Assembly (NCBI GenBank): GCA_903831085.1 | Contig: CAIKWE010000003.1 | Span: 23,468 to 87,467 of the forward strand | DNA from: an uncultured Verrucomicrobiota bacterium | Lineage (GTDB): Bacteria > Verrucomicrobiota > Kiritimatiellia > Kiritimatiellales > Tichowtungiaceae | Length of the DNA: 64,000 nt | Direction: 5' to 3' | Part shown: positions 10,792 to 61,121 of the stretch, piece after piece | How the letters are laid out: every line of letters starts with the position of its first letter | How positions within the stretch are numbered: position 1 is the stretch's first letter | Notes under the pieces: generated by a model | Told to the model about the DNA's origin: nothing | Seen by the model: only the letters and a program-made list of their open reading frames with translations | The model's database searches: none | Position numbers and translations under genes: made by a program

Positions 10792-11862
10792 ATGCAGTTT
10801 CGCCACATTCTGATTACCGGAGGCGCGGGCTTTGCCGGATCTTCGCTCGCGACGCTGTTCAAAGAGCACTTTGAAGGCGTTAAGGTCACGGCGCTCGACA
10901 GCCTGATGCGACGCGGAAGCGAGCTGAACCTGGCGTACCTGAGGGAATACGGCGTGGATTTTGTACACGGTGACGTGCGTTGCCGCGATGATTTCCAAAC
11001 CTTGGAAAAATTTGATCTGCTGATCGACTGCTCCGCTGAGCCGTCCGTGCATGCGGGCACCTCCGGCTCACCGCGCAAGGTGATTGATATCAACCTGAGC
11101 GGCACGGTCAATTGTCTGGAAGCGGCGCGCGAAAACGGTGCCGCCGTGCTGTTTCTGAGCACCAGCCGGGTCTATCCGATTGAGCCGATCCGGAATCTGA
11201 AATACACAGAAACAAAAACCCGCTTCGAGCTGGATGCCAAACAATCCCTGCCCGGCGTCTCGGCCAAGGGAGTCAGCGAAGATTTTCCGCTGGACGGCGC
11301 ACGATCGTTTTACGGCTCCACCAAACTGGCGAGCGAATATTTTCTGCAGGAGTACGTTTATAACTGCGGCATGCGCGGACTGATCAACCGTTGCGGACTG
11401 CTGACCGGCCCGCGCCAGATGGGCCGGGTGGATCAAGGCGTGATCACGCTTTGGCTGGCGCGGCATATTTATCAGAAGCCGCTGAAATACATCGGTTTCG
11501 GCGGAACCGGCAAACAGGTGCGCGACTTGCTACATATCCGCGACCTTTTCGACCTGATTGTGAAACAGATCGCGCAGCCGGATTGCTGGAACGGCGGCGT
11601 TTTCAACGCCGGCGGCGGACGCGAGGTGTCCGTTTCGCTTCAGGAGCTGACCGCTTTCTGCCAGACCATCACCGGAAAGAAAATTTCCGTAACTCCGCAG
11701 CCGGAAACCGCGGCGGTGGATATCCCGATTTATCTGACGGACAATACACGGGTTGAAAAGCAGTTCGACTGGAAACCGCGCACCGGCGTGGAGGAGACCC
11801 TGGGGGATATCGCCAACTGGATTGAGGAAAACAAAGCCGGACTGGAATCTGTTTTTGGTTAA
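10792..11862 (+). CDS. Second RfbE/Tyv-like NAD-dependent epimerase
   Basis: ILITGGAGFAG, RRGSELNL, AEPSV, YGSTK (YxxxK), GKQVRDLLH. Confidence 0.8.
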   Translation: MQFRHILITGGAGFAGSSLATLFKEHFEGVKVTALDSLMRRGSELNLAYLREYGVDFVHGDVRCRDDFQTLEKFDLLIDCSAEPSVHAGTSGSPRKVIDINLSGTVNCLEAARENGAAVLFLSTSRVYPIEPIRNLKYTETKTRFELDAKQSLPGVSAKGVSEDFPLDGARSFYGSTKLASEYFLQEYVYNCGMRGLINRCGLLTGPRQMGRVDQGVITLWLARHIYQKPLKYIGFGGTGKQVRDLLHIRDLFDLIVKQIAQPDCWNGGVFNAGGGREVSVSLQELTAFCQTITGKKISVTPQPETAAVDIPIYLTDNTRVEKQFDWKPRTGVEETLGDIANWIEENKAGLESVFG

Positions 11863-11875
11863 CCGCAGGAGCCGT

Positions 11876-17924: not shown

Positions 17925-17931
17925 CGCATAC

Positions 17932-20457: not shown

Positions 20458-21381
20458 TTACTGATTGCGCAGAAAATACAACGGGCGTTTTTTACTCTCT
20501 TCAAAAATACGGCTGACATATTGACCGACCAGACCGAGGCAAAGCAGCTGGATTCCCGTCAGAAAAAGAATCAGCGCCACGACCGTGGCCCAGCCTGAAG
20601 CAAACTCCTCCGGATGCAGAATCTTCCCGACGATAACCCTCAAACCCTGGATGAAACCGCTGAAGGCAATTATCACACCGAGGCCCATAACCCAGCGCAA
20701 CGGCGCGGCGGAAAATGAAGTGATGGCATCGAAGGCCAGTTTGAGCGATTTCCAGACCGGATATTTGGTGACGCCCGCCTTGCGGGCGGCACGGTCGTAA
20801 TACACGGCGCCCTGTTTGAAACCGACCCAGCAGGTCAGGCCGCGCATGAAACGGTGCAGCTCGCGCACTTCTTTGAGCGCATTGATCACCTTGCGATCCA
20901 CCAGCCGGAAGTCGCCGGCATCCATCGGTACGTTCACTTTAGCGAGCCGGTGGAAAATCCGGTAGAAGGAGGCCGCCAGAAATTTCTTAAGCCAGGTTTC
21001 GCCCTCGCGGCTTTTACGGACGGCATAGACCACTTCAAATCCTTCACGCCACTTGGCGAGCAGATCCGCAACGACCTCCGGCGGATCCTGCAGGTCGGCA
21101 TCAATAATGACTACGGCATCGGCATCGGCGTGATCCATACCGGCAGTGATGGCGATCTGGTGGCCGAAGTTGCGGGAAAGCTGCAAGACTCCAACCCTTG
21201 GATCGCTCTGCCGTGTTTTTTCCAACCATTGGAAACTCCCGTCGGTCGAGCCGTCATCCACAAAAACAAACCGGAGTTCTTCCGGCTCTTTTTCAAAAAC
21301 CGCGCTTACCCGGCGGTAGAGCTCGGGCAGATTTCCCTCTTCGTTAAGAAAAGGAACCACGATGGCCACTGTTTTTTTCAT
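20458..21381 (-). CDS. GtrB-like polyisoprenyl-phosphate glycosyltransferase (GT2, two C-terminal TM helices)
   Basis: LSRNFGHQIAITAG, IDADLQDPP, DAGDFRL, FEESKKRPLY. Confidence 0.9.
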   Translation of the reverse strand: MKKTVAIVVPFLNEEGNLPELYRRVSAVFEKEPEELRFVFVDDGSTDGSFQWLEKTRQSDPRVGVLQLSRNFGHQIAITAGMDHADADAVVIIDADLQDPPEVVADLLAKWREGFEVVYAVRKSREGETWLKKFLAASFYRIFHRLAKVNVPMDAGDFRLVDRKVINALKEVRELHRFMRGLTCWVGFKQGAVYYDRAARKAGVTKYPVWKSLKLAFDAITSFSAAPLRWVMGLGVIIAFSGFIQGLRVIVGKILHPEEFASGWATVVALILFLTGIQLLCLGLVGQYVSRIFEESKKRPLYFLRNQ

Positions 21382-31049: not shown

Positions 31050-32036
31050 ATGATCATCGCACGCACCCCTTTTAGAATCAGTTTTTTCGGTGGCGGCACC
31101 GACTTCCCCGCTTTCTTCCAGCAGCACGGCGGCACGGTTCTTGGCAGTACCATCAACAAATACTGTTACATTTCCGTGCATCACCTGACTGCCTTCTCCA
31201 AACACCGTTTTCGTGCCAGCTACTCGCGCACCGAATCGGTTCTCAAGCCGGAAGAATTTCAGCATCCACTGATCCGCGAAACGCTCCTGTTGCTCAACCA
31301 GCAGGAAGGCGTTGAAATCTCGCATGTCGCTGACTTGCCCGGACAGACCGGACTCGGCTCTTCCTCGGCGTTCACTGTCGGACTGCTCAACGCGCTCTAC
31401 GCCTTCCGCGGACAACGCATCACCCCCGAAGAGCTGGCGCGGCAGGCGATCCACATTGAACGTGACCGCGTCGGCGATGCCGGTGGCTGGCAGGATCAGT
31501 ACGAAGCGGCCTACGGCGGGTTCCGCCGCATCAATTTCCGCAAAGGACAGCCGGTGCAGGTGCTGAGTATCGGCGTCACCGCCGACCGCCTGCAGGAACT
31601 CGAAAACAATCTGCTTCTTTTCTATATGGGCACCGAAAGCTCCGCCGAAAAAATCCTGCAGGATCAGAAAAAACGAGCCGGCGAAAATGAAAAAGCGTTG
31701 CTCACCATGATGCAAATGGTGGATCACGCCGAACGCATCCTCGCCGATGGCGGCCCGCTCGCTGGATTCGGCGACCTGCTCGACGAATCCTGGCGGCTCA
31801 AACGTTCCCTTGCCGATGGCGTCAGTAACCCGCAGATTGACCAGGCCTACGAGGCCGCTCGCGCCGCCGGAGCGCGCGGTGGCAAACTGCTCGGCGCAGG
31901 CGGACGCGGGTTCATCTGCCTTTACGTCGAACCGGAAAAACAGGCCGCCGTGCGTGAAATGCTCAAAGGTCTCAACGAGGTCCGTTTCGGTTTCAGCGCC
32001 GAAGGCAGCCGCATTATTTTCCAAGCATTGGAATAA
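31050..32036 (+). CDS. hddA: D-glycero-D-manno-heptose-7-phosphate kinase (GHMP)
   Basis: RTPFRISFFGGGTD, GLGSSS, GGWQDQY, GGKLLGAGGRG. Confidence 0.85.
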   Translation: MIIARTPFRISFFGGGTDFPAFFQQHGGTVLGSTINKYCYISVHHLTAFSKHRFRASYSRTESVLKPEEFQHPLIRETLLLLNQQEGVEISHVADLPGQTGLGSSSAFTVGLLNALYAFRGQRITPEELARQAIHIERDRVGDAGGWQDQYEAAYGGFRRINFRKGQPVQVLSIGVTADRLQELENNLLLFYMGTESSAEKILQDQKKRAGENEKALLTMMQMVDHAERILADGGPLAGFGDLLDESWRLKRSLADGVSNPQIDQAYEAARAAGARGGKLLGAGGRGFICLYVEPEKQAAVREMLKGLNEVRFGFSAEGSRIIFQALE

Positions 32037-35738: not shown

Positions 35739-36455
35739 ATGGGTAATGCTGAAACCAAATCGATGGCTGTCATTCTGCTCGGCGGAAAAGGAACCCGGAT
35801 TCAGTCGCTCTACGGCGACCGTCCGAAATGTCTGGTGCCTGTTGCCGGCAAACCGATTCTGCTCTGGCAGCTCGAATGGTTGCGGCGCGGCGGTATCAAA
35901 CGCGTCCACCTCGCCGCCGGCTACATGGCTGATGTTCTGCGCGACTGGCTCAAAACCGACGCACCAAAAGACATGGAGATCACCTTTTCCGTCGAACCCG
36001 AACCGCGCGGCACCGGCGGCGCGATTAAATTCGCCGTGCCGTGGATTCAGAGTGACCCCTTTTTCGTTTTGAACGGTGACAGCCTTACGCCCGGCCTCGA
36101 TTTCCACACCTTGGAAAAGGTGCACCGCAATTCTTCCGATGTCTGGATAACGCTCGGTGTCGCGCAGATCGAAAAGACCGGACGTTACGGAACCGTTGAG
36201 TTTGACGAGCAGAACCGCGTCACCGCGTTCCTCGAAAAATCCGAACGTGAACACGGCTGGATCAACACCGGCGTTTACTGCATCAGCCGCCGCGCACTGG
36301 AAGCGATTGCGCCGGATAAAAACATCTCGATTGAAACCGATGTTTTCCCGTCGCTGGCTTCCGCCGGCCGCCTCCGCGTCTTCCGCGCCGCGCCGCCCCT
36401 GCTCGACATGGGCACCCCCGACGGCCTTGCGGCGATGGAAAAATTTCTGAGCTGA
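35739..36455 (+). CDS. hddC: Heptose-1-phosphate guanylyltransferase-like nucleotidyltransferase
   Basis: LLGGKGTR..PK, EPEPRGTGGA, NGDS, INTGVY, DMGTPD; context with gmhA/gmhB/hddA. Confidence 0.75.
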   Translation: MGNAETKSMAVILLGGKGTRIQSLYGDRPKCLVPVAGKPILLWQLEWLRRGGIKRVHLAAGYMADVLRDWLKTDAPKDMEITFSVEPEPRGTGGAIKFAVPWIQSDPFFVLNGDSLTPGLDFHTLEKVHRNSSDVWITLGVAQIEKTGRYGTVEFDEQNRVTAFLEKSEREHGWINTGVYCISRRALEAIAPDKNISIETDVFPSLASAGRLRVFRAAPPLLDMGTPDGLAAMEKFLS

Positions 36456-39880: not shown

Positions 39881-39970
39881 GCTTTTTCCAATGAGGTGGT
39901 TCTGGATTAATTTAGAGGAAGAGAGTAAATCAGAGAACCAACTGGTAAGCATTAAAAAAGGAATGGATTC

Positions 39971-42067
39971 ATGCACTTACGCTCTGCTTCGATTTATGCC
40001 GCGTTTTCCCTGCTTGTGCTGACGGGCTGCTCTGACGGGCCGAAGGGTGAAACGGTTCCGTATGAAACACTCGTGAAGCGGCTCGCCGATCCAGCGCAAA
40101 TGTCCAGTCTGGATACGCCGGGCGCAAAAATCGCCACTTCGTACGACCGGAGCGGCAGCAATAATGACTACGGAAACTTTCTGAAAAAAGGGCCGGACGG
40201 CTGGATGGTGCTGGCGGACTTAAAGGGTCCCGGCTACGTCTCACGCACCTGGTTTACCGGATCCAAGGATGGCTCGAAAAAAATCCGTCTCTATTTTGAC
40301 GGCGAAAAGTCGCCCTCCATCGAAATCACGCTGGACGAATGGTGCGGAAAAAAAGAGCCTCTTACTCTGCCGCTGGCAGGCTACGAACCTTACTGCTGGT
40401 ATTCATGGCTTCCGGTTCCTTTCAAAAAGCGTCTAATCATCATGGAGCAGGCTCCGGTTCGGGATGAAAAGCTCTACTACCAGATCGCTTATAACGCCCT
40501 GCCTGCCGGTCAGACGGTGGAAAGCTTTAAGCTCCCGTTGAGCGCAACGGCCATAGCGGCGATCGCCGAAGTAAAGACCCGCTGGAACGAACGTGGACCG
40601 GCGCAACCTGGGCCGGGAAAACAAAATCGCCTCGAACTACAGGGGCCGGGCCTCATTCAGGAACTTCAATTCACTCCGGACTGGTCCAGCCTTCCGTCTC
40701 CCGCCGCGATTGAAAAGGCCTTACAGGAGACGATCGTTCGCATTTACTGGGATGGAAACACCTCACCCAGCGTAGAAGCGCCGCTCGGCGCGCTGTGCGG
40801 CAGTATGTGGAGCCGCATGCGCTACCAGAGTCTCTATTTTGGCATGACCAATGAAACTCTCAGTCTGCGTTTCCCGATGCCATTCAAGTCATTGGCGGTT
40901 GTTAAAATTGACGGGCCGGCGCCCGTTAACATCGCGGCTGTTACCGGGAAGCCGCAGCTGGCGCAAGGATACCTGCACAGCGGATGGAAAAAAAGCACGG
41001 CACAGGCCGTCGGCAGTCCGCACACGATTTTACAAACGTCCGGCTCCGGCAAATACGTTGGCTGCATCCTTGGCGTACGCAGTCTGGATCAAAGCTGGTG
41101 GGTCCTTGAGGGCGACGAACTGACCGCCGTGGACGGCGAAACAACGCCGGGCTGGAAAGGAACAGGTCTGGAGGATTATTTCAACGGCGGCTGGTATTAC
41201 GGCAACGCGCTGGCCGCGCCGCTAAACGGCGTTGTTTTCAAGGCGCCGTTCCGTATTGTGCAGTACCGGATTCATCAGGCCGACCCGGTCGCCTTCACCA
41301 ATTCGTTCAACATGATTTTTGAACGCGGCCCGGACCACGCCAGCCACGCCGCTTTTGAAAGCGTCTCCTTCTATTATCTGGATCGGCCGCAGAAAGCGGA
41401 TTCCGACATTGGGAAACAGCCTCTCCATCCGGAACCCGACCCGCTCAGCAAACTGACCCTGATGACCGAGATTAACGACAGGGAACGTCTGGGTGATTAC
41501 ACCGCGGCGCAGGACACGATTAAAATGTATCTGGAAGAGTTCAAGGATGCGCCATTCGCCCCGCAGCTTTTCCAGAGACTGGAAAACTACCGTAACGGCG
41601 AAACGATTCCTGAAGGGCAAGCCCTGCTCGGCGTCTATGCCAATATGTCCGCCACGGTTTTTCTGGACGGCACAGTCATTGGCCGGTTCGGCGACCCGCA
41701 GGCTATGCAGTTTAAAACTGTAAACCTCGCCCCGGGCAAACACGTTCTGGCTGTTCAAACCGCTCGGCAGAATTACCCCGACTGGCTACAGGTAGGGCTG
41801 AAATACGGAAACAAGATCGTCGGCACCGACGGCACGTGGAAGTTTTCGTTTAATCAGGGTTCCGATTGGAATACGGCAAACTTCGACGACTCATCGTGGG
41901 AAACTTTGAGCTGCTGGGTGAAAGGTCCGCCGGAAGAGCCGTACATTTTCTGCAAGCCGAACGAACACGTCGGCATGCAATCGGTTCCGTGGGGAATCCG
42001 TCCGGCGAAAGACTGGCCGGCGAACGCCCGGCAGGTTTTCTACCGGAAGGTGTTTACGGTCGAATAA
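39971..42067 (+). CDS. DUF2961 (GH172-like) lipoprotein
   Basis: Lipobox LTGC; SYDRSGSNND, GPGYVSRTW, YFDGE..PSI, WEGDE-like LEGDE, GTGLEDYFNGGW, YRIH..DPV.F motifs. Confidence 0.8.
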   Translation: MHLRSASIYAAFSLLVLTGCSDGPKGETVPYETLVKRLADPAQMSSLDTPGAKIATSYDRSGSNNDYGNFLKKGPDGWMVLADLKGPGYVSRTWFTGSKDGSKKIRLYFDGEKSPSIEITLDEWCGKKEPLTLPLAGYEPYCWYSWLPVPFKKRLIIMEQAPVRDEKLYYQIAYNALPAGQTVESFKLPLSATAIAAIAEVKTRWNERGPAQPGPGKQNRLELQGPGLIQELQFTPDWSSLPSPAAIEKALQETIVRIYWDGNTSPSVEAPLGALCGSMWSRMRYQSLYFGMTNETLSLRFPMPFKSLAVVKIDGPAPVNIAAVTGKPQLAQGYLHSGWKKSTAQAVGSPHTILQTSGSGKYVGCILGVRSLDQSWWVLEGDELTAVDGETTPGWKGTGLEDYFNGGWYYGNALAAPLNGVVFKAPFRIVQYRIHQADPVAFTNSFNMIFERGPDHASHAAFESVSFYYLDRPQKADSDIGKQPLHPEPDPLSKLTLMTEINDRERLGDYTAAQDTIKMYLEEFKDAPFAPQLFQRLENYRNGETIPEGQALLGVYANMSATVFLDGTVIGRFGDPQAMQFKTVNLAPGKHVLAVQTARQNYPDWLQVGLKYGNKIVGTDGTWKFSFNQGSDWNTANFDDSSWETLSCWVKGPPEEPYIFCKPNEHVGMQSVPWGIRPAKDWPANARQVFYRKVFTVE

Positions 42068-44727: not shown

Positions 44728-46352
44728 TTGCGTTCGAAGATTTCAAGCGTGGTAGAGGCCTGACCGAAATTTTGGACTTCCCGGCATTTTGTGTAATTCG
44801 TTTCTAAAACAGCCTGCAGAGCCTTCCGATCACTGGAAGAAAGCTCCGCGATTTCCGGCGAACGGATGGTCAGGCCATAGCCGCTGAGAGCCGCGACCGG
44901 GGCGTGAGCTTTCGAAAGAATCTGGATCAGCATCTCTTTATTCAGCAGATTTAATTTTTCCGCCTTTTCCTTCGGCATGTCGGGATAATAGGAGAACGGC
45001 CCCATCTCCATGCCGTGCGGCACGCGGGCTCCGGCTTCAACCGCCAGATAAGTGTCCTGCGTCAGCAAAAGACCATCGTCGCCGAGTTTCCCGCGCAGTT
45101 CCGCGCCGACCTTCTGCAACGCTGCGAGATCCGGTGTTTCTTTAAACTTCCACCAGATCCGGTCGCGCCCGCGGATCAGCCAATCCTGATTCATTGGTGA
45201 AGAAAACGAGGCGGCGGTACAGATCAGTAGCACGGCGAAAACCGCCCGCAACTGCTGCCGTTCCGGACAATGCGGCACCAGCGTCACCGCCAGCGCGGCG
45301 GACAGTAACGGATAGACAATCACCTGATAATCGTCATACGGAAACGGCGCCATAAAGTGCACCAGCGTAATCAGCGCGCCGGAAAACCAGAGAAGCGAAA
45401 CGAAACTCCGCGCAAATGGCGAGCGTTCCGCATTCGCCTCGCGCAGCAGTTCGATGAGGTTGGGACGGCTGTCGAGTGTCATTTCCTCGAACCCACGCTC
45501 CCGAACCGGCCAATGCAACCGTTGCAGAGCAAACGTCACCAAAAGTCCGGCGAAGAAGACAAAGTAGGCCTGAACGGAACGGGAAATGAAACCGGCTTTC
45601 AGCGCGATCATCTGCATCAGACTGCCGGGCGAACGCCCCGCATGATAGCCGAACAGCGCAAATTCCGTATTTCCCGGAGCCAGAAAAAAGAACGTGCCCA
45701 GTCCGAGCAGCAGAATAAAACCGCCGCCGAGCCCGAATGCGATCCACGACAATGGAAAAACCTTTTTGCGGTTCCAGAGCAGCCAGAGCCCTGCCACCGG
45801 CAGCGCGATTCCGGCCGAGAGGCGCGTACAGGCCGCCAGTGCCAGCAGAAATCCGCCCCAGAAAGCGGCCATAGCGCCGCGACGGCTGTTGCTGGTGTAG
45901 CTCAGCGCCACAAAACCGGCCGTCAGAAAAAAGGCGCAGAGCGCGTAGGTTTTCACGATGACGGTGAAATAGCTCTGATACACGTTAACGCCAGCCAGAA
46001 TAAGCGCACAGAGCGCGGCGGCTTTCCGGTGTTTGGAAGAAACCGAACGAACAGCCAGCCAGGCCGCACAGCCGACGGCGGCCAGCCCGAATAGCGCGGT
46101 GATCAGCCGTCCGCCCGCAACACCGAACTTTTCAATGATTGGAAAAAGCACGCCGTAGATGTAAGGAAGCGCGGCCCCTTGCGTGAACATGAAGTCGCGA
46201 TAGAGCACCTGTCCCTGGGTGATTTGTTTCGCGGCGTAAAGATACCAGCCTTCATCCTGATTTAAACCGCCCAGAAAAAGGTTGGCCGTGCTCAGCAGAA
46301 TACACAGCCCGACCGCAATCACAGTGATGGAAACCCATGTGGCTCGTTTCAT
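44724..46352 (-). CDS. GT-C-like membrane glycosyltransferase
   Basis: First-loop LNQDEGWY (DE motif), G...YRDF, multiple TM helices. Confidence 0.7.
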   Translation of the reverse strand: MKRATWVSITVIAVGLCILLSTANLFLGGLNQDEGWYLYAAKQITQGQVLYRDFMFTQGAALPYIYGVLFPIIEKFGVAGGRLITALFGLAAVGCAAWLAVRSVSSKHRKAAALCALILAGVNVYQSYFTVIVKTYALCAFFLTAGFVALSYTSNSRRGAMAAFWGGFLLALAACTRLSAGIALPVAGLWLLWNRKKVFPLSWIAFGLGGGFILLLGLGTFFFLAPGNTEFALFGYHAGRSPGSLMQMIALKAGFISRSVQAYFVFFAGLLVTFALQRLHWPVRERGFEEMTLDSRPNLIELLREANAERSPFARSFVSLLWFSGALITLVHFMAPFPYDDYQVIVYPLLSAALAVTLVPHCPERQQLRAVFAVLLICTAASFSSPMNQDWLIRGRDRIWWKFKETPDLAALQKVGAELRGKLGDDGLLLTQDTYLAVEAGARVPHGMEMGPFSYYPDMPKEKAEKLNLLNKEMLIQILSKAHAPVAALSGYGLTIRSPEIAELSSSDRKALQAVLETNYTKCREVQNFGQASTTLEIFERK

Positions 46353-48311: not shown

Positions 48312-50084
48312 TCAGTCTGCCCGGCATTCTTCGATCTCAGCCCAGCGGGCAAAGGCGGCATCCATCTCTGCTGAAACAGCTCCGGCGCATTCCGTGACCG
48401 TTTTAATTTCATCTGCCGGGCGGCGATAAAAATCCGGCTCATTCAGCTTCCGATTCAGCTCGGCCAGTTCCGCTTCGAGCTGCTCAATTTTTTTTGGAAG
48501 ATTTTTTAGATCTTCGCGTTCACGGTTGGTCAGCTTGCGCGTCTTCCTCGTTTTCTCTGCCGAAGACGGCTGATCTCTGCCGTCTGACTTCTGATTTCTG
48601 GCTCCTGCGGCCTGTTGCAACCAGTCGTCGTAACCGCCGGCATATTCGCCGATCTGCCCGTTGCCTTCGAACACGAGCGTCTCAGTTACCACGTTATTGA
48701 TAAACGCGCGGTCGTGGCTCACCAGTAGCACGGTGCCCTGATATTCCACCAGTAACTCTTCGAGCAAATCGAGCGTTTCGACGTCGAGATCGTTGGTTGG
48801 CTCGTCGAGCACCAGTACGTTGGAGGACTGGGCAAAAATTTTGGCCAGCATCAGCCGGTTGCGCTCGCCGCCCGAAAGCGATCCGACCGGTTGCCGGGCA
48901 TCAGCGGGCGAAAAAAGAAAATTCTGCAGATACCCGATCGCATGCTGCCGCCCGGTGCCGGTCTGGACATAGTCGTTATCCATGCAGAGGTTCCACTTCA
49001 CGCTCTTTTCCTCATTGAGCGTAATGCGGTGCTGATCGAAATAGGCAATTTCCAGCTTTGTACCGTGCCGAACCTCACCCTGCCGCGGCGCGAGCTGTCC
49101 CAGTAGCGCGTTGAGCAGCGTCGACTTCCCGCATCCGTTGGGGCCGATAATCCCGATGCGGTCGCCACGCAGGATTTCGACAGAAAAGCCGTTAATGACA
49201 TCCGCGCCGCCGTAGCCGCACGAAATATTTTTGGCCGTGATGACCTTACGCCCAGACATCTCCGCTTCGTTCAGTTGCATTTTGACGGTGCCGGTCCGTT
49301 CGCGCCGCTGGGAGCGCTCGACCCGCAGTTTTTCGAGTTCGCGGACGCGGCCTTCGTTACGCGTCCGGCGCGCTTTGATCCCTTTACGGATCCAGACTTC
49401 TTCCTGTGCGAGCTTGCGGTCGAATTCAGCCCTTTGCCCTTCCTCGGCTTCGAGCAGCGCCTGCCGGCGGCTCAAATAGGTTTCATAGTCGCATGCCCAG
49501 CTGGTCAGATTCCCGCGATCAAGCTCCACAATGCGCGTGGCCAGCTTTTTGAGAAATACGCGGTCATGAGTAACAAACAACACCGTACCGCGCCAGCGCA
49601 GCAGAAAGTTTTCCAGCCATTGGATCGATTCGATATCGAGGTGGTTGGTCGGCTCGTCGAGGATCAGCAGATCCGGTTCATTCACCAGCGCTTTGGCAAG
49701 CAGCGCGCGGCGGCGCATCCCGCCGGACAGCGAGGAAAATTCCTGGTCTGGATCGAGACCCAGCAGAGAAATCGCCTTCTCCACCGGATGATCTAGGGCG
49801 TGTTCGTGGTTCCAATCTTTGGACACCAGATCGAAAACCGTCCCTTGAATATCCTGCGGAACCGTCTGTTGAAGCCGTGCAATCCGCACCTCGCGCGAGC
49901 GGACAATCTCACCTTTGTCCGGCTCCAGCTCGCCGCTGACAATTTTCAGCAGTGTGGACTTGCCTTGGCCGTTACGTCCGACCAGACAGATGCGCTCGCC
50001 CGGCTCGATTTGCAACGTCACGCCGTCCAGCAATGCCGGTCCGCCGAACGCGATATGAAGATTCTGTAAACTAAGTAATGCCAT
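48312..50084 (-). CDS. uup: ABC-F family ATPase Uup
   Basis: Start reassigned to ATG 50084; two ABC cassettes (GRNGQGKS, GPNGCGKS, LSGG, DEPTN), EEVWIRKGIKARRTRNEGRVR linker. Confidence 0.9.
   Translation of the reverse strand: MALLSLQNLHIAFGGPALLDGVTLQIEPGERICLVGRNGQGKSTLLKIVSGELEPDKGEIVRSREVRIARLQQTVPQDIQGTVFDLVSKDWNHEHALDHPVEKAISLLGLDPDQEFSSLSGGMRRRALLAKALVNEPDLLILDEPTNHLDIESIQWLENFLLRWRGTVLFVTHDRVFLKKLATRIVELDRGNLTSWACDYETYLSRRQALLEAEEGQRAEFDRKLAQEEVWIRKGIKARRTRNEGRVRELEKLRVERSQRRERTGTVKMQLNEAEMSGRKVITAKNISCGYGGADVINGFSVEILRGDRIGIIGPNGCGKSTLLNALLGQLAPRQGEVRHGTKLEIAYFDQHRITLNEEKSVKWNLCMDNDYVQTGTGRQHAIGYLQNFLFSPADARQPVGSLSGGERNRLMLAKIFAQSSNVLVLDEPTNDLDVETLDLLEELLVEYQGTVLLVSHDRAFINNVVTETLVFEGNGQIGEYAGGYDDWLQQAAGARNQKSDGRDQPSSAEKTRKTRKLTNREREDLKNLPKKIEQLEAELAELNRKLNEPDFYRRPADEIKTVTECAGAVSAEMDAAFARWAEIEECRAD
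48571..48605. repeat. 7-nt periodic motif inside the uup linker
   Basis: TGATCTCTGCCGTCTGACTTCTGATTTCTGG, encoding RNQKSDGRDQ on the - strand. Confidence 0.45.
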
Positions 50085-50130: not shown

Positions 50131-51792
50131 TTACACAAAATGGCGGCCGAGCAGTTCTTCGACCTGATCGCGCCAGATGGCGTCATATTTACAGCCTTTT
50201 TTCAGCCGCACAAAAATACGGCGTGAAGCGATCTGATCGAACAGCGCCGCCGAAGCGTAACGATCCAGCAGATGCGGCGGCTGCTTTTTGATGGTTTCAA
50301 TCATCGCTTCTAGCAGTCCGATCGGTTCTTCGCGCTCCGAACAAAGCACAAACTGCCAAAGTATGTCCGGCTCGCGAACGATTGCCTGCTCGATCATTTG
50401 GCAGATTTCTTTTCGGCGGGCGTTGAGGTCGTCGCCACGAATAATCACTGCGCAGCGGTTCTGTCCGGCCTGTTCCTTAAACAGCCCTTCAAGCCGATAG
50501 CCGGTAAAGCGCGACGTCACCGGATCGGCGGGCAACTCGATACTGTCGTGTAGTAAAACTTCAATGCGCGTCATTTCCTCTTCGGACATCGTCGAAGTGG
50601 AAAACACGCCGTACGGCGGAAGCGGCATCGCTTTCATTCCATATAGTTCGGACTGATCGCGCAGATCGGTACCCGGTAGCAAAAGCGTCTGCATGCACTG
50701 AATACTGATATTCGGCCCGAAACCGCGCGCCCATTCAATACTGCGGAGTACATCGTCTATCGTCTGCTCCGGCAAACCGTACATCAGGTCGAGCGTCACC
50801 TTCACGCCCGCGCCAGTCAGCAAACGGATTCCTTTTTCAACCTGCGCGATATTCACCGGACGGCGGATCGCGCGCAGTACTTTCGGATCGGTGCTCTGCA
50901 CACCGACTTCCACCTCCACAAAATTAGCTTTGGCCATCAGTTCCGCCTGTTCCGGCGTCAGCGTATCGGCGCGCAGCTCGGCAAAAAATCCAAGCTTCCG
51001 GTCGGTGTTAATTTCCGCCAACCGTTTCAGCAAACCGGTGAAGTCGGCGCGGGCATTAAAGGTCGGGTCAACAAAGCGGATTTCCCGCGCACCAGCGGCG
51101 CGTAGCTCCTGAACCCGTTGCGCCGCCGCTTCCGCCGGAAGTGCTCGAACGCCCTTCTGCAAATGGTGATAACGGCAGTATGTGCAGGTCAGCGGACAGC
51201 CACGCGAGGTTTCCACATAAACTGACGGGCGTACTTTGATGCACTCCCGCAACATCGCCACCGGAACTTGAACTGACGCCAGATCAATCTGTGGCGGCGG
51301 TTTACTGCCGCGATTCCAACCTTTGGAACCTGAAACCAGCACGTTGTCATACGCCGGCAGTTTGCCGATGCGGATTCCTTTCAGAATCTCCGGAAAAACC
51401 GCCTCACCTTCGCCGGTTACCAGCGCGTTAAAAAACGGCTCTTCCAGCAGAAATGGATGATCCTCCGAAATCTCCGGGCCGCCCGCCATCAGGAAAAGTT
51501 CCGGACAAGATTTGCGGAGCATTCCAGCAATTCGCAGACCGCGTTCGACATTCCAGAGACAAAGCGTAAACGCTACGGCTTCGACGCCACTCACCAGAAT
51601 CTTCTGGATCAGATTCGCGTTATCCAGTTCGTCCCACTTCGCCGGAGCCGGAACAACTTCCCAGAACTCGCCTTCGGAGTGCTGAGACAGCGCATGTGAA
51701 AGCCAGAGACCGGCGAACGGAAAATTTTCGCGTTGCGTCGAAGTGTCGTTGTCCAGCAACGGAAGCTGGATGAATAAAATCTTCTTTTTCAT
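50131..51792 (-). CDS. B12-binding domain radical SAM protein
   Basis: Start reassigned to ATG 51792; GGPEI, VTGEGE, ETSRGCPLTCTYC, EVGVQS, DLMYGLP. Confidence 0.85.
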   Translation of the reverse strand: MKKKILFIQLPLLDNDTSTQRENFPFAGLWLSHALSQHSEGEFWEVVPAPAKWDELDNANLIQKILVSGVEAVAFTLCLWNVERGLRIAGMLRKSCPELFLMAGGPEISEDHPFLLEEPFFNALVTGEGEAVFPEILKGIRIGKLPAYDNVLVSGSKGWNRGSKPPPQIDLASVQVPVAMLRECIKVRPSVYVETSRGCPLTCTYCRYHHLQKGVRALPAEAAAQRVQELRAAGAREIRFVDPTFNARADFTGLLKRLAEINTDRKLGFFAELRADTLTPEQAELMAKANFVEVEVGVQSTDPKVLRAIRRPVNIAQVEKGIRLLTGAGVKVTLDLMYGLPEQTIDDVLRSIEWARGFGPNISIQCMQTLLLPGTDLRDQSELYGMKAMPLPPYGVFSTSTMSEEEMTRIEVLLHDSIELPADPVTSRFTGYRLEGLFKEQAGQNRCAVIIRGDDLNARRKEICQMIEQAIVREPDILWQFVLCSEREEPIGLLEAMIETIKKQPPHLLDRYASAALFDQIASRRIFVRLKKGCKYDAIWRDQVEELLGRHFV

Positions 51793-51801
51793 TTTGGTTT
51801 T

Positions 51802-51891
51802 ACAGAAGGGAACAAAGGGCAACGAAGGTTGCCGGGCAAATCATTCTTCTCTCTATTCAATCTACCTTGGTTTTCCTTCGTTTCCTTCTGT
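51802..51891. repeat. Inverted repeat with 9-nt periodic arms
   Basis: Left ACAGAAGGGAACAAAGGGCAACGAAGG; reverse complement of right arm ACAGAAGGAAACGAAGGAAAACCAAGG. Confidence 0.75.
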
Positions 51892-51898: not shown

Positions 51899-52687
51899 TT
51901 ATTCATTGGAAGTCAATGGGGGACGGACATACGGCGGATAGCCGGGCAGAATTTCCGAAAGCGCCTGCTTGATGCGGGCGATGGCGAACGGACCGGAAAA
52001 CTGCGCATAAACTTTATCCACCGCGGCCTGATTCTCCGCGCTCTGGTCCGTTTCGATGCGGACGTACGGTAGCGGATCGGCATTTGATGCTGCGCTGACA
52101 AATCCTTTCGCTCCGGCGGTGTACGCGGCGCAGATTTTCCGGTCGCCGCCGACGAAATAGCGCGGCGTCGCCGGAATAAGCGACAGATCGGCGGAAGAAT
52201 CTTTCATTCCGTAATGCGGCACCTGCGCCAGAATTTCCGGTGTCAGTGGATTGCCGGTATGTTTCGGAAAGTTATAGAGAATCAGCGGGAGCGCGGTGGA
52301 TTCCGCCAGTGCGGTGAACCATTCCACCAGACCGGCGGCGGGCGCACCGGCAAAATAAAACGGCGGAAGTGCGGCGATAAAGTCAGCACCCTCGCCTTCG
52401 GCGGCGCGGGCGGTTTCCAGACATTGGAAAAGCACCGGACTGCCGGTATGGGCGATAATGATTCCGTCCCAGTTTTCGCGGGCGACTTGCAGCAATTGCA
52501 ACTGCTCGGCGGGCGTCAGAGAAAAAAACTCACCGGTCGTTCCGTTCACCAGCAGATTGCGCACGCCGCATTCGGCCAGCCAGTCGAGATGCGCCAGAAA
52601 CGCCCCAAAATCCACCGCACCGCTCTCCGTAAACGGCGCCGGCGCCGGGACAACTAACCCCTTGAGCTCAAAATCGGTTTTGTTCAT
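51899..52687 (-). CDS. Dihydrodipicolinate synthase (DapA/NAL) family aldolase
   Basis: Start reassigned to ATG 52687; NGTTGEF, LYNFP, GMKDSS. Confidence 0.85.
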   Translation of the reverse strand: MNKTDFELKGLVVPAPAPFTESGAVDFGAFLAHLDWLAECGVRNLLVNGTTGEFFSLTPAEQLQLLQVARENWDGIIIAHTGSPVLFQCLETARAAEGEGADFIAALPPFYFAGAPAAGLVEWFTALAESTALPLILYNFPKHTGNPLTPEILAQVPHYGMKDSSADLSLIPATPRYFVGGDRKICAAYTAGAKGFVSAASNADPLPYVRIETDQSAENQAAVDKVYAQFSGPFAIARIKQALSEILPGYPPYVRPPLTSNE

Positions 52688-52715: not shown

Positions 52716-53390
52716 ATGACGAAACAAGAATCTATTCCGGCCTGCCCGCTCTGCGCCAACGGCTCGACGGAGCCGTTTCACCGTGACCGGAAGCGCGAGT
52801 TTTTCCGCTGTCCGCAGTGCGATCTGGTTTTCGTGCCGCCGGAATTCCACCTTTCACCGGAAGCGGAAAAGGCGCGCTATGATTTTCACAGCCAAAGTCT
52901 GGACGATTCCGGCTACAGCGATTTTTTGAACCGGCTGTTCCAGCCTGTGCAAAAGAAACTTCTGCCCGGCGCGCGCGGACTCGACTTCGGCTGCGGCCGG
53001 GAACCGACGCTCTCCGTGCTGTTCGAGGGCGCCGGATTTCCTTGCGCCAACTATGACCTGCACTTCGCCAACGATCCGGCGGTTTTAGAAAAGCAGTACG
53101 ACTTTCTCACCTGCTCGGAAACGATGGAGCATTTCTATCGTCCGCGCGAAGAATTCGCGCGCTTCCTGCAAATGGTGAAGCCCGGCGGCTGGATCGGCAT
53201 TATGACCCAGTTGCGCGATGAAGCTCCGCCGTTCTCAACGTGGTTCTACAAAGATGACGCAACGCACGTCTGCTTTTTCTCGCGGAAAACTTTCCAATGG
53301 TTGTCAGAAACATACAGCCTGAAACTGGAGTTTCACCCGAACGGAGTCACCCTCTTCCAGACATTGGAAGCTTCGCAGGATTTCGTTTAG
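52716..53390 (+). CDS. Class I SAM methyltransferase with N-terminal zinc ribbon
   Basis: Start reassigned to ATG 52716; CPLC..CPQC, LDFGCG, ETMEHF, YKDDATHVCFF. Confidence 0.8.
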   Translation: MTKQESIPACPLCANGSTEPFHRDRKREFFRCPQCDLVFVPPEFHLSPEAEKARYDFHSQSLDDSGYSDFLNRLFQPVQKKLLPGARGLDFGCGREPTLSVLFEGAGFPCANYDLHFANDPAVLEKQYDFLTCSETMEHFYRPREEFARFLQMVKPGGWIGIMTQLRDEAPPFSTWFYKDDATHVCFFSRKTFQWLSETYSLKLEFHPNGVTLFQTLEASQDFV

Positions 53391-53459: not shown

Positions 53460-53477
53460 AATAATTTTTCCAATGTT

Positions 53478-53514
53478 TAAAAATAAAAAGGCCGGACACA
53501 CCGTCCGACCTTTT
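53478..53514 (-). terminator. Rho-independent terminator after infC
   Basis: On the - strand: AAAAGGTCGGAC-ggtgt-GTCCGGCCTTTT followed by ATTTTT. Confidence 0.7.
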
Positions 53515-53533
53515 GTCTTCCAATCCCTGGAAA

Positions 53534-55828: not shown

Positions 55829-55949
55829 AAATAAGGCGCAAACTGTACATTTACAGCTATAGCGTGTCAATCAGACGCCTTGTTAGATGGCTGTTTTCCG
55901 ATGCTTGGAAGCCCGAAGGTCAGTCGGTGAGCCTGTAGATGCGAGTCGT

Positions 55950-56510: not shown

Positions 56511-56522
56511 AACCGGCCTCCG

Positions 56523-56771: not shown

Positions 56772-56836
56772 GACTCATTTCCTCTCATTGAATAAAACGT
56801 AATTCATTGCCCCGCGATTGGCAAACATCATGTTTT

Positions 56837-57574: not shown

Positions 57575-57576
57575 CG

Positions 57577-58440
57577 TTATTTCCGATTCCGGGCCAACTC
57601 GTCCGCCCGATAGGAGGAGCGCACCAGCGGGCCCGCCGCCACGCCCTCAAATCCGATTCCCCGAGCAAGTGCGGCCAGTTTATCAAAATGTTCGGGGGAA
57701 AGATAGCGTTCAACCGGATGATGTTCGCGTGTCGGCGCCAGATACTGCCCCAGCGTCAGCAGGCGGACGCCCGCCGCATACAAATCTTCCAGACATTGGA
57801 AAATCTCCTCATCGGTTTCGCCAAGCCCCAGCATCAGTCCCGACTTCACCTGCACTCCACATCGCTCCGCCGCCTTGCGCAACGTCGCCAGCGACTTTTC
57901 ATAGCTCGCCTGCGGACGAACCGTTGCCTGAAGCCGCTCGACCGTTTCAAGGTTGTGATTAAATACATCCGGTTTCGCATCCAGCACGATATCGAGATGC
58001 TCTACAAAATCGGGCGTCAAAACTTCGACCGATGCTTCCGGCATCGCCGCCTTTACCGCGCAAATCGTGTTGGCAAAAGCCTGCGCGCCGCCGTCAGGCA
58101 GATCGTCGCGCGTTACGCTGGTGATCACCACATGCCGCAAATTCAGCCTTTTGGCGGCCTCGGCCACGCGGGCCGACTCGTCCGGATCGACCGGCGACGG
58201 CTTGCCGGTGTTCACATTGCAGAAACGGCAGTTGCGTGTGCAGATGTTACCAAGAATCATCACCGTCGCTGTTCCGCTGTTCCAGCACTCATGGCGGTTG
58301 GGACACTTTGCGCTGGCGCAGACCGTATTCAGCTGAAGACTCTCCAGCAGCTTTCTCACATCCGGATAGCTCTGATCCGTCGCGATCGGCCGCCGCATCC
58401 ACCGCGGCAGCCGCTGCGCTTTGGGTTTGAGCTCATTCAT
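57577..58440 (-). CDS. lipA: Lipoyl synthase
   Basis: TVCASAKCPNRHEC, CTRNCRFC, VFNHNLETV, LGQYL, LVRSSYRA. Confidence 0.97.
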   Translation of the reverse strand: MNELKPKAQRLPRWMRRPIATDQSYPDVRKLLESLQLNTVCASAKCPNRHECWNSGTATVMILGNICTRNCRFCNVNTGKPSPVDPDESARVAEAAKRLNLRHVVITSVTRDDLPDGGAQAFANTICAVKAAMPEASVEVLTPDFVEHLDIVLDAKPDVFNHNLETVERLQATVRPQASYEKSLATLRKAAERCGVQVKSGLMLGLGETDEEIFQCLEDLYAAGVRLLTLGQYLAPTREHHPVERYLSPEHFDKLAALARGIGFEGVAAGPLVRSSYRADELARNRK

Positions 58441-58448
58441 GGCGAATC

Positions 58449-61121
58449 TCAGGCGGACAGCGTTTCGATCAGCTTCTGGAGTTTTTCGCGTTTTTCAAGC
58501 AGCTCGCCTTTACGCTTCTCTTCACCGGCAACGACGTCGGCAGGCGCCTTGCTCATGAACCCGGCGTTGGAAAGTTTTTTGACGATTCCGGTGATGCCGT
58601 TCTCGACGATCTCAATCTGCTTTTTCAGCTTCTTGATCTCGGCATCGGTGTCCACCAGTCCTTCGATGGACATATACACTGTGCCAAGTTGGCTGATGCC
58701 GCTGGGCATCGCGCCTTCCGGCGTGAAGTCGCGGTCGATCCCGATGGATTCCGCGCCGAGCAGTGACGAAACCGACGCGATGTCCTCGCGGAGCAGTTTA
58801 CCGGTGCGTTCCTGCGCCGGACGGATATAAAACTTCGCCTGTTGTTTCGGCGTGAGGTTGTAGTCGGTGCGCAAAGTACGGCCGACGCGGATCAAGTCGT
58901 GCTTGGCATCCACATAATCAACCGTTTCACGTTTCACGCCCCACGCACTCAGGTCTTCATAGGAAAGCGCCTTCGGCCACGGCGCGGTTTGAATGGACTC
59001 GCAGGAACCGTTATATCCCATGCCGTGCCACAGCTCTTCGGTGATGAACGGGATAAACGGATGCAGCAGACGGATGGCGCTGGAGAAAACATAGTGCATC
59101 ACCTGCTCGACTTCCTGTTTGCGCTGCGCGTCTTCGCCGCGGAACACGCTCTTCGAATATTCGACGTACCAGTCGCAGTAGTGATGCCACATGAAGTCGT
59201 ACATCGCCAGCGAGGCATCGTTGAAGCGGCAGCGCGCCAGATTATCCTCGGTGTTGCGGACGGCTTCGCTCAGCTTGGCGAGAATATGCTGATCGTCCGG
59301 ACTGAGCGTCATCTTGCTGAAATCAATCTTATCGGGATCGATCGGCGCGCCGGTGGCGTTCATCTGCATAAAGCGCGCGGCGTTCCAGATCTTGGTGCAG
59401 AAGTTGCGACCCAACTCAAATTTTTCGTCACTGATATAAACGTCCTGCCCCGTCGCGGTCAGCATCATCAGACTGAAGCGCAGCGCGTCGGCGCTGTATT
59501 TATCGATGATGTTAAGCGGATCGATCGAGTTGCCGAGACTCTTGCTCATCTTGCGGCCCTGATCGTCGCGCACGGTGCCGTGGATATAAACCGTGTCGAA
59601 CGGAATCTTATCCATGAACTCCATGCCCGCCATAATCATACGCGCCACCCAGAAGAAAATAATTTCCGAAGCGGTCACCAGTGTTTTGGTCGGGTAAAAA
59701 TGTTTCAGATCAGCGGTCTGCTCCGGCCAGCCGAATACGCTGAACGGCCAGAGCCACGACGAAAACCAGGTATCAAGAACGTCTTCGTCCTGACGAATGT
59801 CCTTCACGCCGCAAACCGGACAGCTTCCGGGAACTTCCCGCGCCGCCCATTCATGGCCGCAGGCATCGCAGTAGAACACCGGAATGCGGTGGCCCCACCA
59901 GATCTGACGCGAAATGCACCAGTCGCGGATGTTTTCCATCCAGTCGAGATACACCTTGTTCCAGCGCTCCGGCACAAACTTGATGCGGCCGTCGCGTACC
60001 GCTTCGATGGCAGGCTTGGCCAGCGGCTTCATGTTGACGAACCACTGCGGTGACAAGCGAGGTTCGACAACCGTCGCACAGCGGTAGCAGTGACCAACCG
60101 AGTGCATGTGCTTGTCGATCTTCTCCATCAGCCCGCCGTGCTTCAGGTCTTCGACCAGCTGTTTGCGGCAGTCGAACCGGTCCAGTCCGGCGTACGGCCC
60201 GGCGGCTTCATTCATCACGCCGTGATCGTCCATCACATTGATCGGCGTCAGCTTGTGGCGCAGACCGATTTCAAAGTCGTTCGGATCATGCGCCGGCGTC
60301 ACCTTAACACAACCGGTTCCAAAGCTCGGATCGACAAACTCGTCGGCGACGACCGGAATTTCTCTTCCAAGGATTGGAAGAATCAGCGTCTTGCCGACCA
60401 GGTCGCTGTAGCGTTTATCGCGCGGGCTGACGGCGACAGCCACGTCGCCGAGCATCGTTTCCGGACGCGTAGTGGCGACCGTGATCTTACGCTTTTCGTC
60501 TTTGACGGTGTAGCGGATGTAATACAGCGCGCCCTCGGTCTCGACGTGTTCACTCTCTTCATCGGAAAGCGCGGTGGTGCAGCGCGAGCACCAGTTGATG
60601 ATGCGGTTGCCGCGGTAAATCAGTCCCTTGTCATACAGACGGCAGAAAACTTCCAGAACGGCTTTGCTCAAACCCTCGTCCATCGTGAAGCGCTCGCGCT
60701 CCCAGTCGCAGGACGAGCCGAGCTTCTTGAGCTGGCTGACAATCGTGCTGCCGTACTCCTCTTTCCACGTCCAGACTTCCTTCAAAAATTCATCGCGCGA
60801 AAGGTCGTGGCGGCTCTTGCATTCTTTAGCCAGCTTGCGCTCGACCACGTTCTGCGTCGCGATACCGGCGTGGTCGGTGCCCGGCACCCACAGCGCATTC
60901 TTGCCCTGCATGCGCTGCCAGCGGATCAGCACGTCCTGAATCGTGTTATTCAGCGCGTGGCCCATGTGCAAAATACCGGTCACGTTCGGCGGCGGAATGA
61001 CAATCGTCCACGGCTCTTTGCTCGCGTCCGGCTTCGCGCTGAAGGCTTTCTCCTCCAGCCACTTCGCATACCACTTCGCCTCAACGCCGGCGGGTTCATA
61101 ATTCTTCGGTAACTCAGCCAT
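58449..61121 (-). CDS. valS: Valyl-tRNA synthetase
   Basis: PPPNVTGILHMGH (HIGH-type), DWCISRQIWWGH, KMSKS, C-terminal coiled coil. Confidence 0.98.
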   Translation of the reverse strand: MAELPKNYEPAGVEAKWYAKWLEEKAFSAKPDASKEPWTIVIPPPNVTGILHMGHALNNTIQDVLIRWQRMQGKNALWVPGTDHAGIATQNVVERKLAKECKSRHDLSRDEFLKEVWTWKEEYGSTIVSQLKKLGSSCDWERERFTMDEGLSKAVLEVFCRLYDKGLIYRGNRIINWCSRCTTALSDEESEHVETEGALYYIRYTVKDEKRKITVATTRPETMLGDVAVAVSPRDKRYSDLVGKTLILPILGREIPVVADEFVDPSFGTGCVKVTPAHDPNDFEIGLRHKLTPINVMDDHGVMNEAAGPYAGLDRFDCRKQLVEDLKHGGLMEKIDKHMHSVGHCYRCATVVEPRLSPQWFVNMKPLAKPAIEAVRDGRIKFVPERWNKVYLDWMENIRDWCISRQIWWGHRIPVFYCDACGHEWAAREVPGSCPVCGVKDIRQDEDVLDTWFSSWLWPFSVFGWPEQTADLKHFYPTKTLVTASEIIFFWVARMIMAGMEFMDKIPFDTVYIHGTVRDDQGRKMSKSLGNSIDPLNIIDKYSADALRFSLMMLTATGQDVYISDEKFELGRNFCTKIWNAARFMQMNATGAPIDPDKIDFSKMTLSPDDQHILAKLSEAVRNTEDNLARCRFNDASLAMYDFMWHHYCDWYVEYSKSVFRGEDAQRKQEVEQVMHYVFSSAIRLLHPFIPFITEELWHGMGYNGSCESIQTAPWPKALSYEDLSAWGVKRETVDYVDAKHDLIRVGRTLRTDYNLTPKQQAKFYIRPAQERTGKLLREDIASVSSLLGAESIGIDRDFTPEGAMPSGISQLGTVYMSIEGLVDTDAEIKKLKKQIEIVENGITGIVKKLSNAGFMSKAPADVVAGEEKRKGELLEKREKLQKLIETLSA

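Follow-up and report, generated by a model that had tools for sequence, protein, structure and literature searches.

We analysed a 64,000-nt stretch of genomic DNA from an uncultured bacterium of the order Kiritimatiellales (contig CAIKWE010000003.1, positions 23,468 to 87,467; hereafter the window), in which one interrupted palindrome, TTCCAA-N3-TTGGAA, recurs within and between genes. The window holds 12 exact copies, compared with 0.00 expected from dinucleotide-preserving shuffles, and a further 12 copies with one mismatch (mismatches are counted throughout from TTCCAA-N3-TTGGAA, and phase 0, 1 or 2 refers to the codon frame of the motif). Sites with 0, 1, 2 and 3 mismatches numbered 12, 12, 13 and 19, compared with 0, 0.2, 3.1 and 23 expected under an order-3 Markov model. 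N3-TTGGAA follows 12 of the 30 TTCCAA hexamers in the window, where no spacing other than N3 was found, and when every palindrome with 5- or 6-base arms was scanned without bias, TTCCAA-N3-TTGGAA was the sole over-represented one. The explanation that we consider probable is that a single hyperabundant DNA palindrome, created by base substitution and presumably read by a dimeric protein, is spread through a clade of Kiritimatiellales.

Nine of the exact copies lie in genes, distributed over phases 0, 1 and 2 as three, four and two, and three are intergenic. In phase 0, the motif is read as FQTLE (10993..11007) in a gene for an NAD-dependent sugar epimerase/dehydratase (10792-11862, + strand), with an identical copy in L085 (such labels denote loci of relatives or metagenomes; L092 is Tichowtungia aerotolerans and L094 is Pontiella desulfatans), as FQWLE (21220..21234) in a gene for a GtrB-like GT2 glycosyltransferase (20458-21381, − strand), with a two-mismatch copy 31 nt upstream at 21189, and as FQALE (32019..32033), the final five codons before the TAA of a HddA-like sugar kinase gene (31050-32036, +). 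Phase 1 gives VPSIGK (8389..8403) and FPSIGK (8473..8487) in the same gene for a NAT-domain protein (7742-8764, −), where a two-mismatch copy (8420..8434) stands 31 nt from the former and 53 nt from the latter, and LPILGR (60365..60379) in valS (58449-61121, −), with an identical copy in L001. Two exact copies 40 nt apart, 38406 (SNHWK, phase 2) and 38446 (FPMIGK, phase 1), occupy 38406..38460 in a loop of an 834-residue YfhO-like membrane protein (37472-39976, −); they bracket a 5-pair GC hairpin and a T run, and the loop is longer than that of relatives. The other phase 2 copy, SKGWN (51314..51328), is in a gene for a B12-binding radical SAM protein (50131-51822, −). The intergenic exact copies are at 2064..2078 (TTCCAATGTTTGGAA) upstream of nrdD, with a one-mismatch copy 74 nt away at 1990-2004, at 61875..61889 between a PIN-domain gene and cimA, and at 63924..63938 upstream of cimA; in the matching, roughly collinear stretch of L001 the last of these has an exact counterpart with another spacer.

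Copies with one mismatch are read as IPNVWK (6181..6195) at the start of a chondroitinase-B-like gene (6167-7723, +), followed 22 nt further by a two-mismatch copy at 6203, as FHTLE (36102..36116) in a gene for a HddC-like nucleotidyltransferase (35739-36455, +), as VPMFGS (37837..37851) in the YfhO-like membrane protein, as FPIIEK (46130..46144) in the gene at 44724-46352 (−) and as SKDWN (49810..49824) in uup (48312-50084, −). The single mismatch is synonymous in the FQCLE copies of a DapA-like gene (52415..52429; gene 51899-52687, −) and of lipA (57787..57801; gene 57577-58440, −), both with CTG, and in the FQTLE copy near the C-terminus of a methyltransferase (53355..53369; gene 52716-53390, +), with CAG. 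Both mismatches are synonymous (CAG, CTG) in the FQRLE copy TTCCAGAGACTGGAA at 41570..41584, in a DUF2961/GH172 gene (39971-42067, +). The identical 15-mer TTCCAGACATTGGAA was seen three times, each time as an FQ[CT]LE copy with synonymous CAG or CTG. Intergenic one-mismatch copies lie at 55896..55910, between thrS and a DUF2179 gene, and at 63718..63732, upstream of cimA. Two degenerate copies within 53468..53532, at 53468 (two mismatches) and 53518 (one mismatch), lie 50 nt apart between convergent genes and flank a 13-pair terminator hairpin (53486-53514), after which a T run follows.

A sequence-only reading of this DNA had proposed that the palindrome is written into proteins in all three frames, and the phases of the nine exact gene copies bear this out. 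All the peptides and coordinates that it quoted are present in the window: the sites at 10993, 21220, 32019, 38406, 38446, 51314 and 60365 are exact, those at 36102, 37837, 52415, 53355 and 57787 have one mismatch and that at 41570 has two. To these we add the coding copies 8389 VPSIGK, 8473 FPSIGK, 49810 SKDWN, 46130 FPIIEK and 6181 IPNVWK. Two gene names needed correction, namely, that of 10993, which had been placed in HddC (the HddC-like gene holds 36102), and that of 41570, which belongs to the DUF2961/GH172 protein.

The polysaccharide/lipopolysaccharide (LPS) cluster at approximately 11000-32000 is poor in the motif, the copy at 21220 being the sole exact one between 10993 and 32019, and this part of the window is also the least conserved among relatives (73-76% identity). 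The combination fits a motif that accumulates only after long residence of a gene.

Based on 40 exact copies from the window and its relatives, the extended consensus is (t)TTTCCAA-W-S-W-TTGGAAA(a), an interrupted palindrome that is perfect and whose flanks are symmetric. The motif is preceded by T in 65% of these copies, and 36 of the 40 have G or C as the central base; an independent metagenome sample gave the same consensus, with a preceding T in 75% and a central G or C in 96%. The most frequent spacer overall is ACA/TGT. Every copy embeds CCA-N5-TGG, which is the kind of pattern recognized by type II enzymes of the PflMI class and which occurs 35 times in the window compared with 14 expected, the whole excess being derived from the motif. 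Restriction avoidance of this embedded pattern was considered and rejected, as approximately 11 sites remain outside the motif compared with 14 expected, which is no depletion. A hairpin function was also rejected, as the single strand folds weakly (−4.5 to −5.2 kcal/mol). The motif string was absent from the literature searched, in which nothing was found that ties Tichowtungia to palindromes.

The distances between neighbouring copies follow the DNA helix. In loci that had not been selected for pairs, adjacent copies less than 200 nt apart were separated by 22 nt (four cases), 31 nt (eight cases), 40-43, 53, 63, 72-74, 84, 93-95 and 103-106 nt, among others, and the Rayleigh test peaked at 10.5 bp (R 0.75, p ~1e-8; p 5e-5 with each distinct distance taken once). 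Phased neighbours in the window are 8389/8420/8473, 21189/21220, 6181/6203 and 38406/38446, and others were found in L085, L092 and L093. A metagenome scan for two exact copies 20-50 nt apart returned 80 loci (L095-L174), in which all 123 of 123 adjacent distances were 22-23 (14), 30-33 (93) or 41-42 nt (16), that is, 8 of the 31 permitted distances were used. The sequences between the paired copies, and their flanks, are unrelated to each other. One such arrangement, at 1007-1156 of L100, is an intergenic array of six exact copies with spacings of 31, 30, 22, 30 and 22 nt, bordered by genes for a GNAT acetyltransferase and a membrane protein on a contig of 63% GC.

Other sources of this spacing were considered. 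The periodicity of the alpha-helix (3.6 residues, ~10.8 nt) was rejected as the cause, as paired copies lie in different frames, the non-coding array has the same spacings and only 8 of 31 distances occur. A longer repeat unit behind the 31-nt pairs was rejected as well, the intervening 16 nt being unrelated. A scan of viral sequences gave mostly single pairs, and L228 (7600-7850) proved to be a look-alike in which a different, longer palindrome of 23 bp, GGAGTTCCAAACTTTGGAACTCC, occurs six times. Another look-alike, L133 (9249-9550), is an 82-nt tandem repeat containing TTCCAAAATTTGGAA on a low-GC metagenome contig.

The closest named relatives of the window are metagenome-assembled Kiritimatiellales or Pontiellaceae genomes, and its Uup protein is 78% identical to that of T. 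aerotolerans and 64% identical to that of P. desulfatans. In T. aerotolerans (CP047593.1, 1149948-1171702), 21.7 kb contain 11 exact and 6 one-mismatch copies, all in genes. Exact copies number 6 in 9.6 kb of L085, 4 in 20 kb of L087 (GCA_037141075.1), 4 in 15.5 kb of L001, 1 in 8.3 kb of L089 and 1 in 13.8 kb of L091. L093 has a single exact copy in 21.8 kb but 8 one-mismatch copies, and the motif therefore looks decayed there; most of these mismatches fall on the outer bases, which would suit a motif that is decaying or shorter in this lineage. No exact copy was found in L081 (21 kb; L081 and L082 derive from JGI 3300047491), L086 (10 kb), L083, L084 or P. desulfatans L094, nor in 79 ValS loci of other phyla (1.2 Mb), whereas a Pontiella-like metagenome contig, L124, does have the motif. 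L081 and L086 share 83-86% DNA identity with the window over genes in which L085, at 84%, is rich in the motif. When these two motif-free loci were checked for remnants, sites with two or fewer mismatches were in weak excess (4 compared with 1.2 expected) and motif-type peptides showed no excess.

We then compared the motif with the proteins that it runs through, using the 56 called genes of the window (20,595 codons) for peptide and codon statistics. With the proteins held fixed and synonymous codons redrawn according to window usage, 0.14 copies were expected in genes, compared with the 9 observed. The motif demands rare codons: in the window CAA makes up 22% of Gln codons, TTG 12% of Leu codons and CCA 7% of Pro codons. 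Relative to amino-acid composition, FQxLE occurs 7 times compared with 0.21 expected, [FLIV]P.[FLIV]G. 6 times compared with 0.65, and S[KN]xW[KN] 4 times compared with 0.14, so that the encoded peptides are 10-30-fold over-represented. The excess tracks the presence of the motif from lineage to lineage, with 12 FQxLE in 7031 residues of T. aerotolerans (0.08 expected) and 1 motif-type peptide in four pooled motif-free loci (0.8 expected). The statement that the motif 'reshapes the proteome' is accurate as to this excess and overstated as to its reach, as approximately 0.4% of residues are affected, mostly at variable positions.

FQxLE, [FLV]PxxG and SxxW[KN] are the three-frame, either-strand translation of one DNA-level signal. 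Approximately 90% of copies are intragenic, and they occur on both strands, in all frames and also in intergenic DNA. The 33 exact coding copies of the window and its relatives fall into phases 0, 1 and 2 as 18, 7 and 8, FQxLE being the commonest reading (18 of 33), and intergenic copies exist besides. Because the palindrome is placed inside genes, the three peptide types are arithmetically inevitable; the informative points are that nine copies are within genes at all and that rare codons are used. Four of the seven FQxLE peptides in the window are encoded with synonymous CAG or CTG, the pattern expected from decay of the DNA motif under retention of the peptide. The motif thus provides a clean, quantified case of a DNA-level signal that overrides codon preference and nudges amino-acid sequences without indels.

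Approximately 17 of 19 coding sites showed no length difference from orthologues or solved homologues. In ValS, LPILGR belongs to a conserved block, LP[ILV]x[GNED]R, that is gapless across 79 motif-free orthologues; the peptide is ancestral and the motif was made by codons alone, through synonymous and rare ones. The NAT-domain protein is similar: at 8473, motif-free L081 has the identical FPSIGK with four synonymous differences (TTC, CCG, ATC, GGT), and at 8389 it has VPAIGK with four arm differences, all synonymous, and no indel. Over three window sites, 11 of 36 arm positions differ from L081, compared with a background of ~15%. At the epimerase site, no gap was found within the 20 surrounding residues of 121 sequences; distant homologues have [FL][ED]xLP, close motif-free ones FQALG or FQNLG, and FQTLE is confined to the window, P0004 and P0006, which gives a graded series LExLP, FQxLG, FQTLE. 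In LipA, FQCLE aligns without gaps to RTALG, IETLK and YATMK of solved structures, and L001 has FQALE. FQWLE of the GtrB-like protein aligns without gaps to LKQLI (5EKP) and VRLLK (L084), and the DapA-like site is gapless with respect to solved DapA structures. In the HemW-like gene of L085, five exact copies and a further near copy are spread over all three frames, and the encoded protein is gapless compared with HemN and NocN inside the motif peptides, for example with FQTLE on LDALE.

At the Uup, radical SAM, 46130 and 37837 sites, comparison with two to five relatives showed no gap. VPMFGS at 37837 corresponds to IPPFKN in L093, FPIIEK at 46130 to FPIIKK, FPIVEK or FPVIEK (4-5 mismatches), and SKGWN at 51314 to SDGWK in L087 (2 mismatches) and SGGWR in L093, all without a gap.

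These alignments show that the gene copies come and go through base substitution in codons that were already there, and not by insertion of an element. Where a compatible peptide was already present, as in ValS and the NAT-domain protein, only synonymous and usually rare codons have been recruited. Elsewhere, as in the epimerase and the LipA, GtrB-like, DapA-like and HemW-like proteins, the aligned residues indicate amino-acid changes at tolerant positions, typically with F-Q-x-L-E arising on a variable helix that already had a leucine. The earlier proposal of substitution instead of insertion is upheld at the large majority of sites, and its ancestral-peptide alternative applies to ValS LPILG and NAT-domain FPSIGK. 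A copy coincides with an indel at 38446 and possibly at 38406, in the loop 38406-38460. That proposal had also seen no obvious extra length in LipA, GtrB and HddC, which is correct for LipA and the GtrB-like protein; the HddC-like protein is 3 residues longer at FHTLE than its closest solved homologue, 5xhw, and its D-F-x-x-L-x-x-x-H spacing is the one usual for the family.

Orthologous sites turn over and yet persist. Six lineages share the Uup site, which has 0 mismatches in L087 and one or two in T. aerotolerans, L089, L091, L093 and the window. At the DapA-like site, L087 (FQTLE) and T. aerotolerans (FQCLE) have exact copies, from which the window departs by one synonymous mismatch; only the window has an exact copy at the radical SAM site; and at the GH172 site (41570), L087 holds a one-mismatch copy at the same place. 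We also counted how often, with the amino acid unchanged, the third base remained the arm base. In motif-bearing relatives, synonymous arm codons were kept in 46 of 59 cases, compared with 34.5 expected from the same codons elsewhere (CAA in 4 of 4 compared with 38%, CCA in 3 of 5 compared with 10%), while the same test in motif-free relatives gave 4 of 15 compared with 6 expected. Persistence at 0-2 mismatches, together with the retention of synonymous arm positions, suggests that a continuing pressure on the DNA balances decay.

Given the separation of neighbouring copies by multiples of 10.5 bp, the continuation of the symmetry into A/T flanks and a central base that is nearly always G or C, the motif would be the recognition site of a dimeric DNA-binding protein, with bound dimers touching each other along the same face of the helix. 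The reader that we favour, with the chances about evenly balanced, is a dimeric protein that binds cooperatively. Accumulation could be driven by selection for binding (nucleoid organisation or self-marking), by biased uptake with recombination, or by biased repair. We put forward only tentatively the fuller proposal that, throughout the genome, the palindrome serves as operator for an abundant dimeric protein that binds cooperatively, with sites spread through genes across Kiritimatiellales at whole helical turns, and represents a second, independent system resembling that of HIP1 (highly iterated palindrome 1); the protein could be a sequence-specific nucleoid organiser, a marker of self DNA or an uptake receptor.

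We regard it as very unlikely that the copies stem from in-frame insertion of small mobile palindromic elements, like Rickettsia palindromic elements (RPEs) or miniature inverted-repeat elements (MITEs), with the peptides as added segments. The loop at 38406-38460, which exceeds that of L093 by 13 residues and that of L087 by 8 and has two copies around a hairpin and T run, would suit such an origin, as would the 3 additional residues of the HddC-like protein relative to 5xhw and the arrays of L100, which have a two-copy rhythm of ~52 nt and could grow by duplication; nevertheless, some 17 of 19 coding sites are equal in length to their counterparts, flanks and inter-copy sequences are dissimilar, the unit is 15-19 bp with no target duplications, and motif-free orthologues hold point-diverged versions of the same 15 bases. 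On this comparison, insertion is already refuted as a general mechanism. Less probable still, to the point of being hardly tenable, is that the peptides and not the DNA are selected, for instance FQxLE as a helix-capping or binding motif, the palindrome being a by-product of codons. FQxLE is indeed the commonest reading (18 of the 33 exact coding copies) and suits amphipathic helices in the LipA, DapA-like and HemW-like proteins, but one 15-mer serves three frames, both strands and intergenic DNA, the codon redraw yields 0.14 copies where 9 are seen and the codons used are rare, FPSIGK persists in motif-free L081 without the DNA motif, and the spacing follows the DNA helix even in non-coding arrays.

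Two rivals accept the substitution origin and differ in the driving force. One holds that biased repair tied to a DNA methyltransferase recognizing the motif core, the model proposed for HIP1, created and keeps the copies with no need for a function of the sites; we judge this improbable. The embedded CCA-N5-TGG, of the PflMI class, is not avoided outside the motif (~11 compared with 14 expected). The hyperabundance in all frames and the bias of decayed L093 copies to outer positions also resemble HIP1, for which a methylation-linked repair model has been proposed (PMC4390886). However, helical phasing and intergenic arrays are not obviously explained by repair, and the evidence on HIP1 itself speaks for selection rather than neutral replenishment, a local peptide imprint having been described there already (PMC5861425). 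The other rival, that the motif is a DNA uptake sequence whose biased uptake and recombination drive point-mutational accumulation as in Pasteurellaceae and Neisseriaceae, we consider unlikely, by a little less than the repair model. It predicts the sharp differences in motif content between close lineages, expected from lost receptor specificity or competence, and is in keeping with the A/T-rich flanks and with the motif-poor LPS cluster at 11-32 kb, which was likely exchanged between lineages. Known uptake sequences are, on the other hand, non-palindromic with an asymmetric core, while this motif is a symmetric palindrome, and phased intergenic arrays resemble operator arrays more; uptake sequences are not known to have neighbours strictly phased at 10.5 bp, and competence is not known in this phylum. 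The substitution origin, the use of all frames, the peptide excess and the poorly conserved residues match the description of uptake sequences, in which copies accumulate by point mutation, encoded tripeptides are ~2-fold up and poorly conserved residues are affected (Findlay and Redfield 2009, PMC2817400).

Several points weigh against a substitution-made, protein-read palindrome. The evidence for protein binding is entirely geometrical. Between the window and L087, 0 of ~5 exact sites are exact in both, which is not above neutral, and all are within 2 mismatches; the test of synonymous conservation pools several relatives per site, and its counts are non-independent and supportive only. A neighbour-joining tree (2172 columns, ~2.2 kb) is nearly a star for motif-bearing and motif-free lineages; L081 and L086 may have lost the motif or may never have had it, an outgroup resolving the polarity of change at some sites only. 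All figures given for DNA beyond the window are based on loci of 8-22 kb rather than whole genomes. The copy at 38446, and possibly that at 38406, lies in the membrane-protein loop that exceeds its L093 and L087 counterparts in length, where insertion or duplication may have taken part, and intergenic arrays such as that of L100 may grow by duplication rather than substitution.

Compared with known systems, the motif resembles HIP1 (GCGATCGC, cyanobacteria) as a short palindrome that is hyperabundant over a whole lineage and, as for HIP-type motifs, enriched in all three frames and in non-coding DNA. It differs in sequence and phylum (Kiritimatiellota), in having a 6-N3-6 design with 12 fixed bases and flanks rather than 8 contiguous bases, in its lower density of 1 per 2-5 kb and in neighbours phased at 10.5 bp (22, 31-32, 42 nt). 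With the uptake signal sequences of Pasteurellaceae (USS) and the DNA uptake sequences of Neisseriaceae (DUS), it shares point-mutation accumulation, a mostly genic location, a peptide excess at poorly conserved residues, a reading-frame bias and a content that varies between related lineages; unlike them, it is palindromic, uses rare rather than preferred codons and has helically phased neighbours, and its pentapeptide excess is 10-150-fold compared with ~2-fold for uptake-sequence tripeptides. RPEs are also palindromic DNA that is translated inside protein-coding genes. They are roughly 100-150 bp long, insert in frame and add a peptide segment, whereas the unit here is 15-19 bp and nearly all copies replace codons without a change of length, which separates it from RPEs by their defining test. 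Repetitive extragenic palindromes and bacterial interspersed mosaic elements (REP/BIME) and MITEs are likewise short repeated palindromes with many copies per genome, but those are extragenic, longer, imperfect and spread in a transposition-like manner, while ~90% of copies here are intragenic, born by substitution and set in unrelated flanks. The dimer-type palindrome, whole-turn spacing and intergenic arrays recall Noc-binding sites, SlmA-binding sites and paired ARG boxes. Those systems have tens of sites per genome, in contrast to this motif, which extrapolates to hundreds or thousands, mostly inside genes.

The behaviour proposed here is therefore known in kind from HIP1 and uptake sequences, and what appears to be new is the motif, the phylum, the interrupted dimer-type architecture and the strict short-range phasing. 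Why one short palindrome should pervade the genomes of some bacterial lineages, even inside genes, has been a long-standing question since HIP1, and uptake sequences are the only such case with an understood mechanism; the motif adds a new instance in an unrelated phylum. As it has 12 fixed bases and chance copies are negligible, gains and losses can be read site by site, and as lineages ~85% identical are either dense in it or devoid of it, the polarity of change can be deduced directly and gene contents compared for the responsible protein. The helical-repeat spacing is a structural clue that neither HIP1 nor uptake sequences give at such range. The motif is present in the cultured, fully sequenced T. 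aerotolerans and hence experimentally accessible; if the operator reading is true, direct tests would become possible both of the binding protein and of what hyperabundant palindromes do.

Two sites offer further detail on individual copies. At the Uup site (49810), the Tichowtungia side has SKDWN in phase 2 and the Pontiella group has FQGLE in phase 0 (L094, ~10260), where the DNA, TTCCAGGGGCTGGAG, is the motif with three synonymous departures and a 3-residue length difference adjoins; going by these sequences, a single DNA site may underlie both peptides through a change of reading frame, or the likeness may be a coincidence. At the DapA-like site, the spacer on the coding strand is TGT (Cys) in the window (52415-52429) and L092 (8611-8625) and ACA (Thr) in L087 (6021-6035). 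As ACA is the reverse complement of TGT, the two states are separated by one flip of the palindrome or its loop, or else by three point changes.

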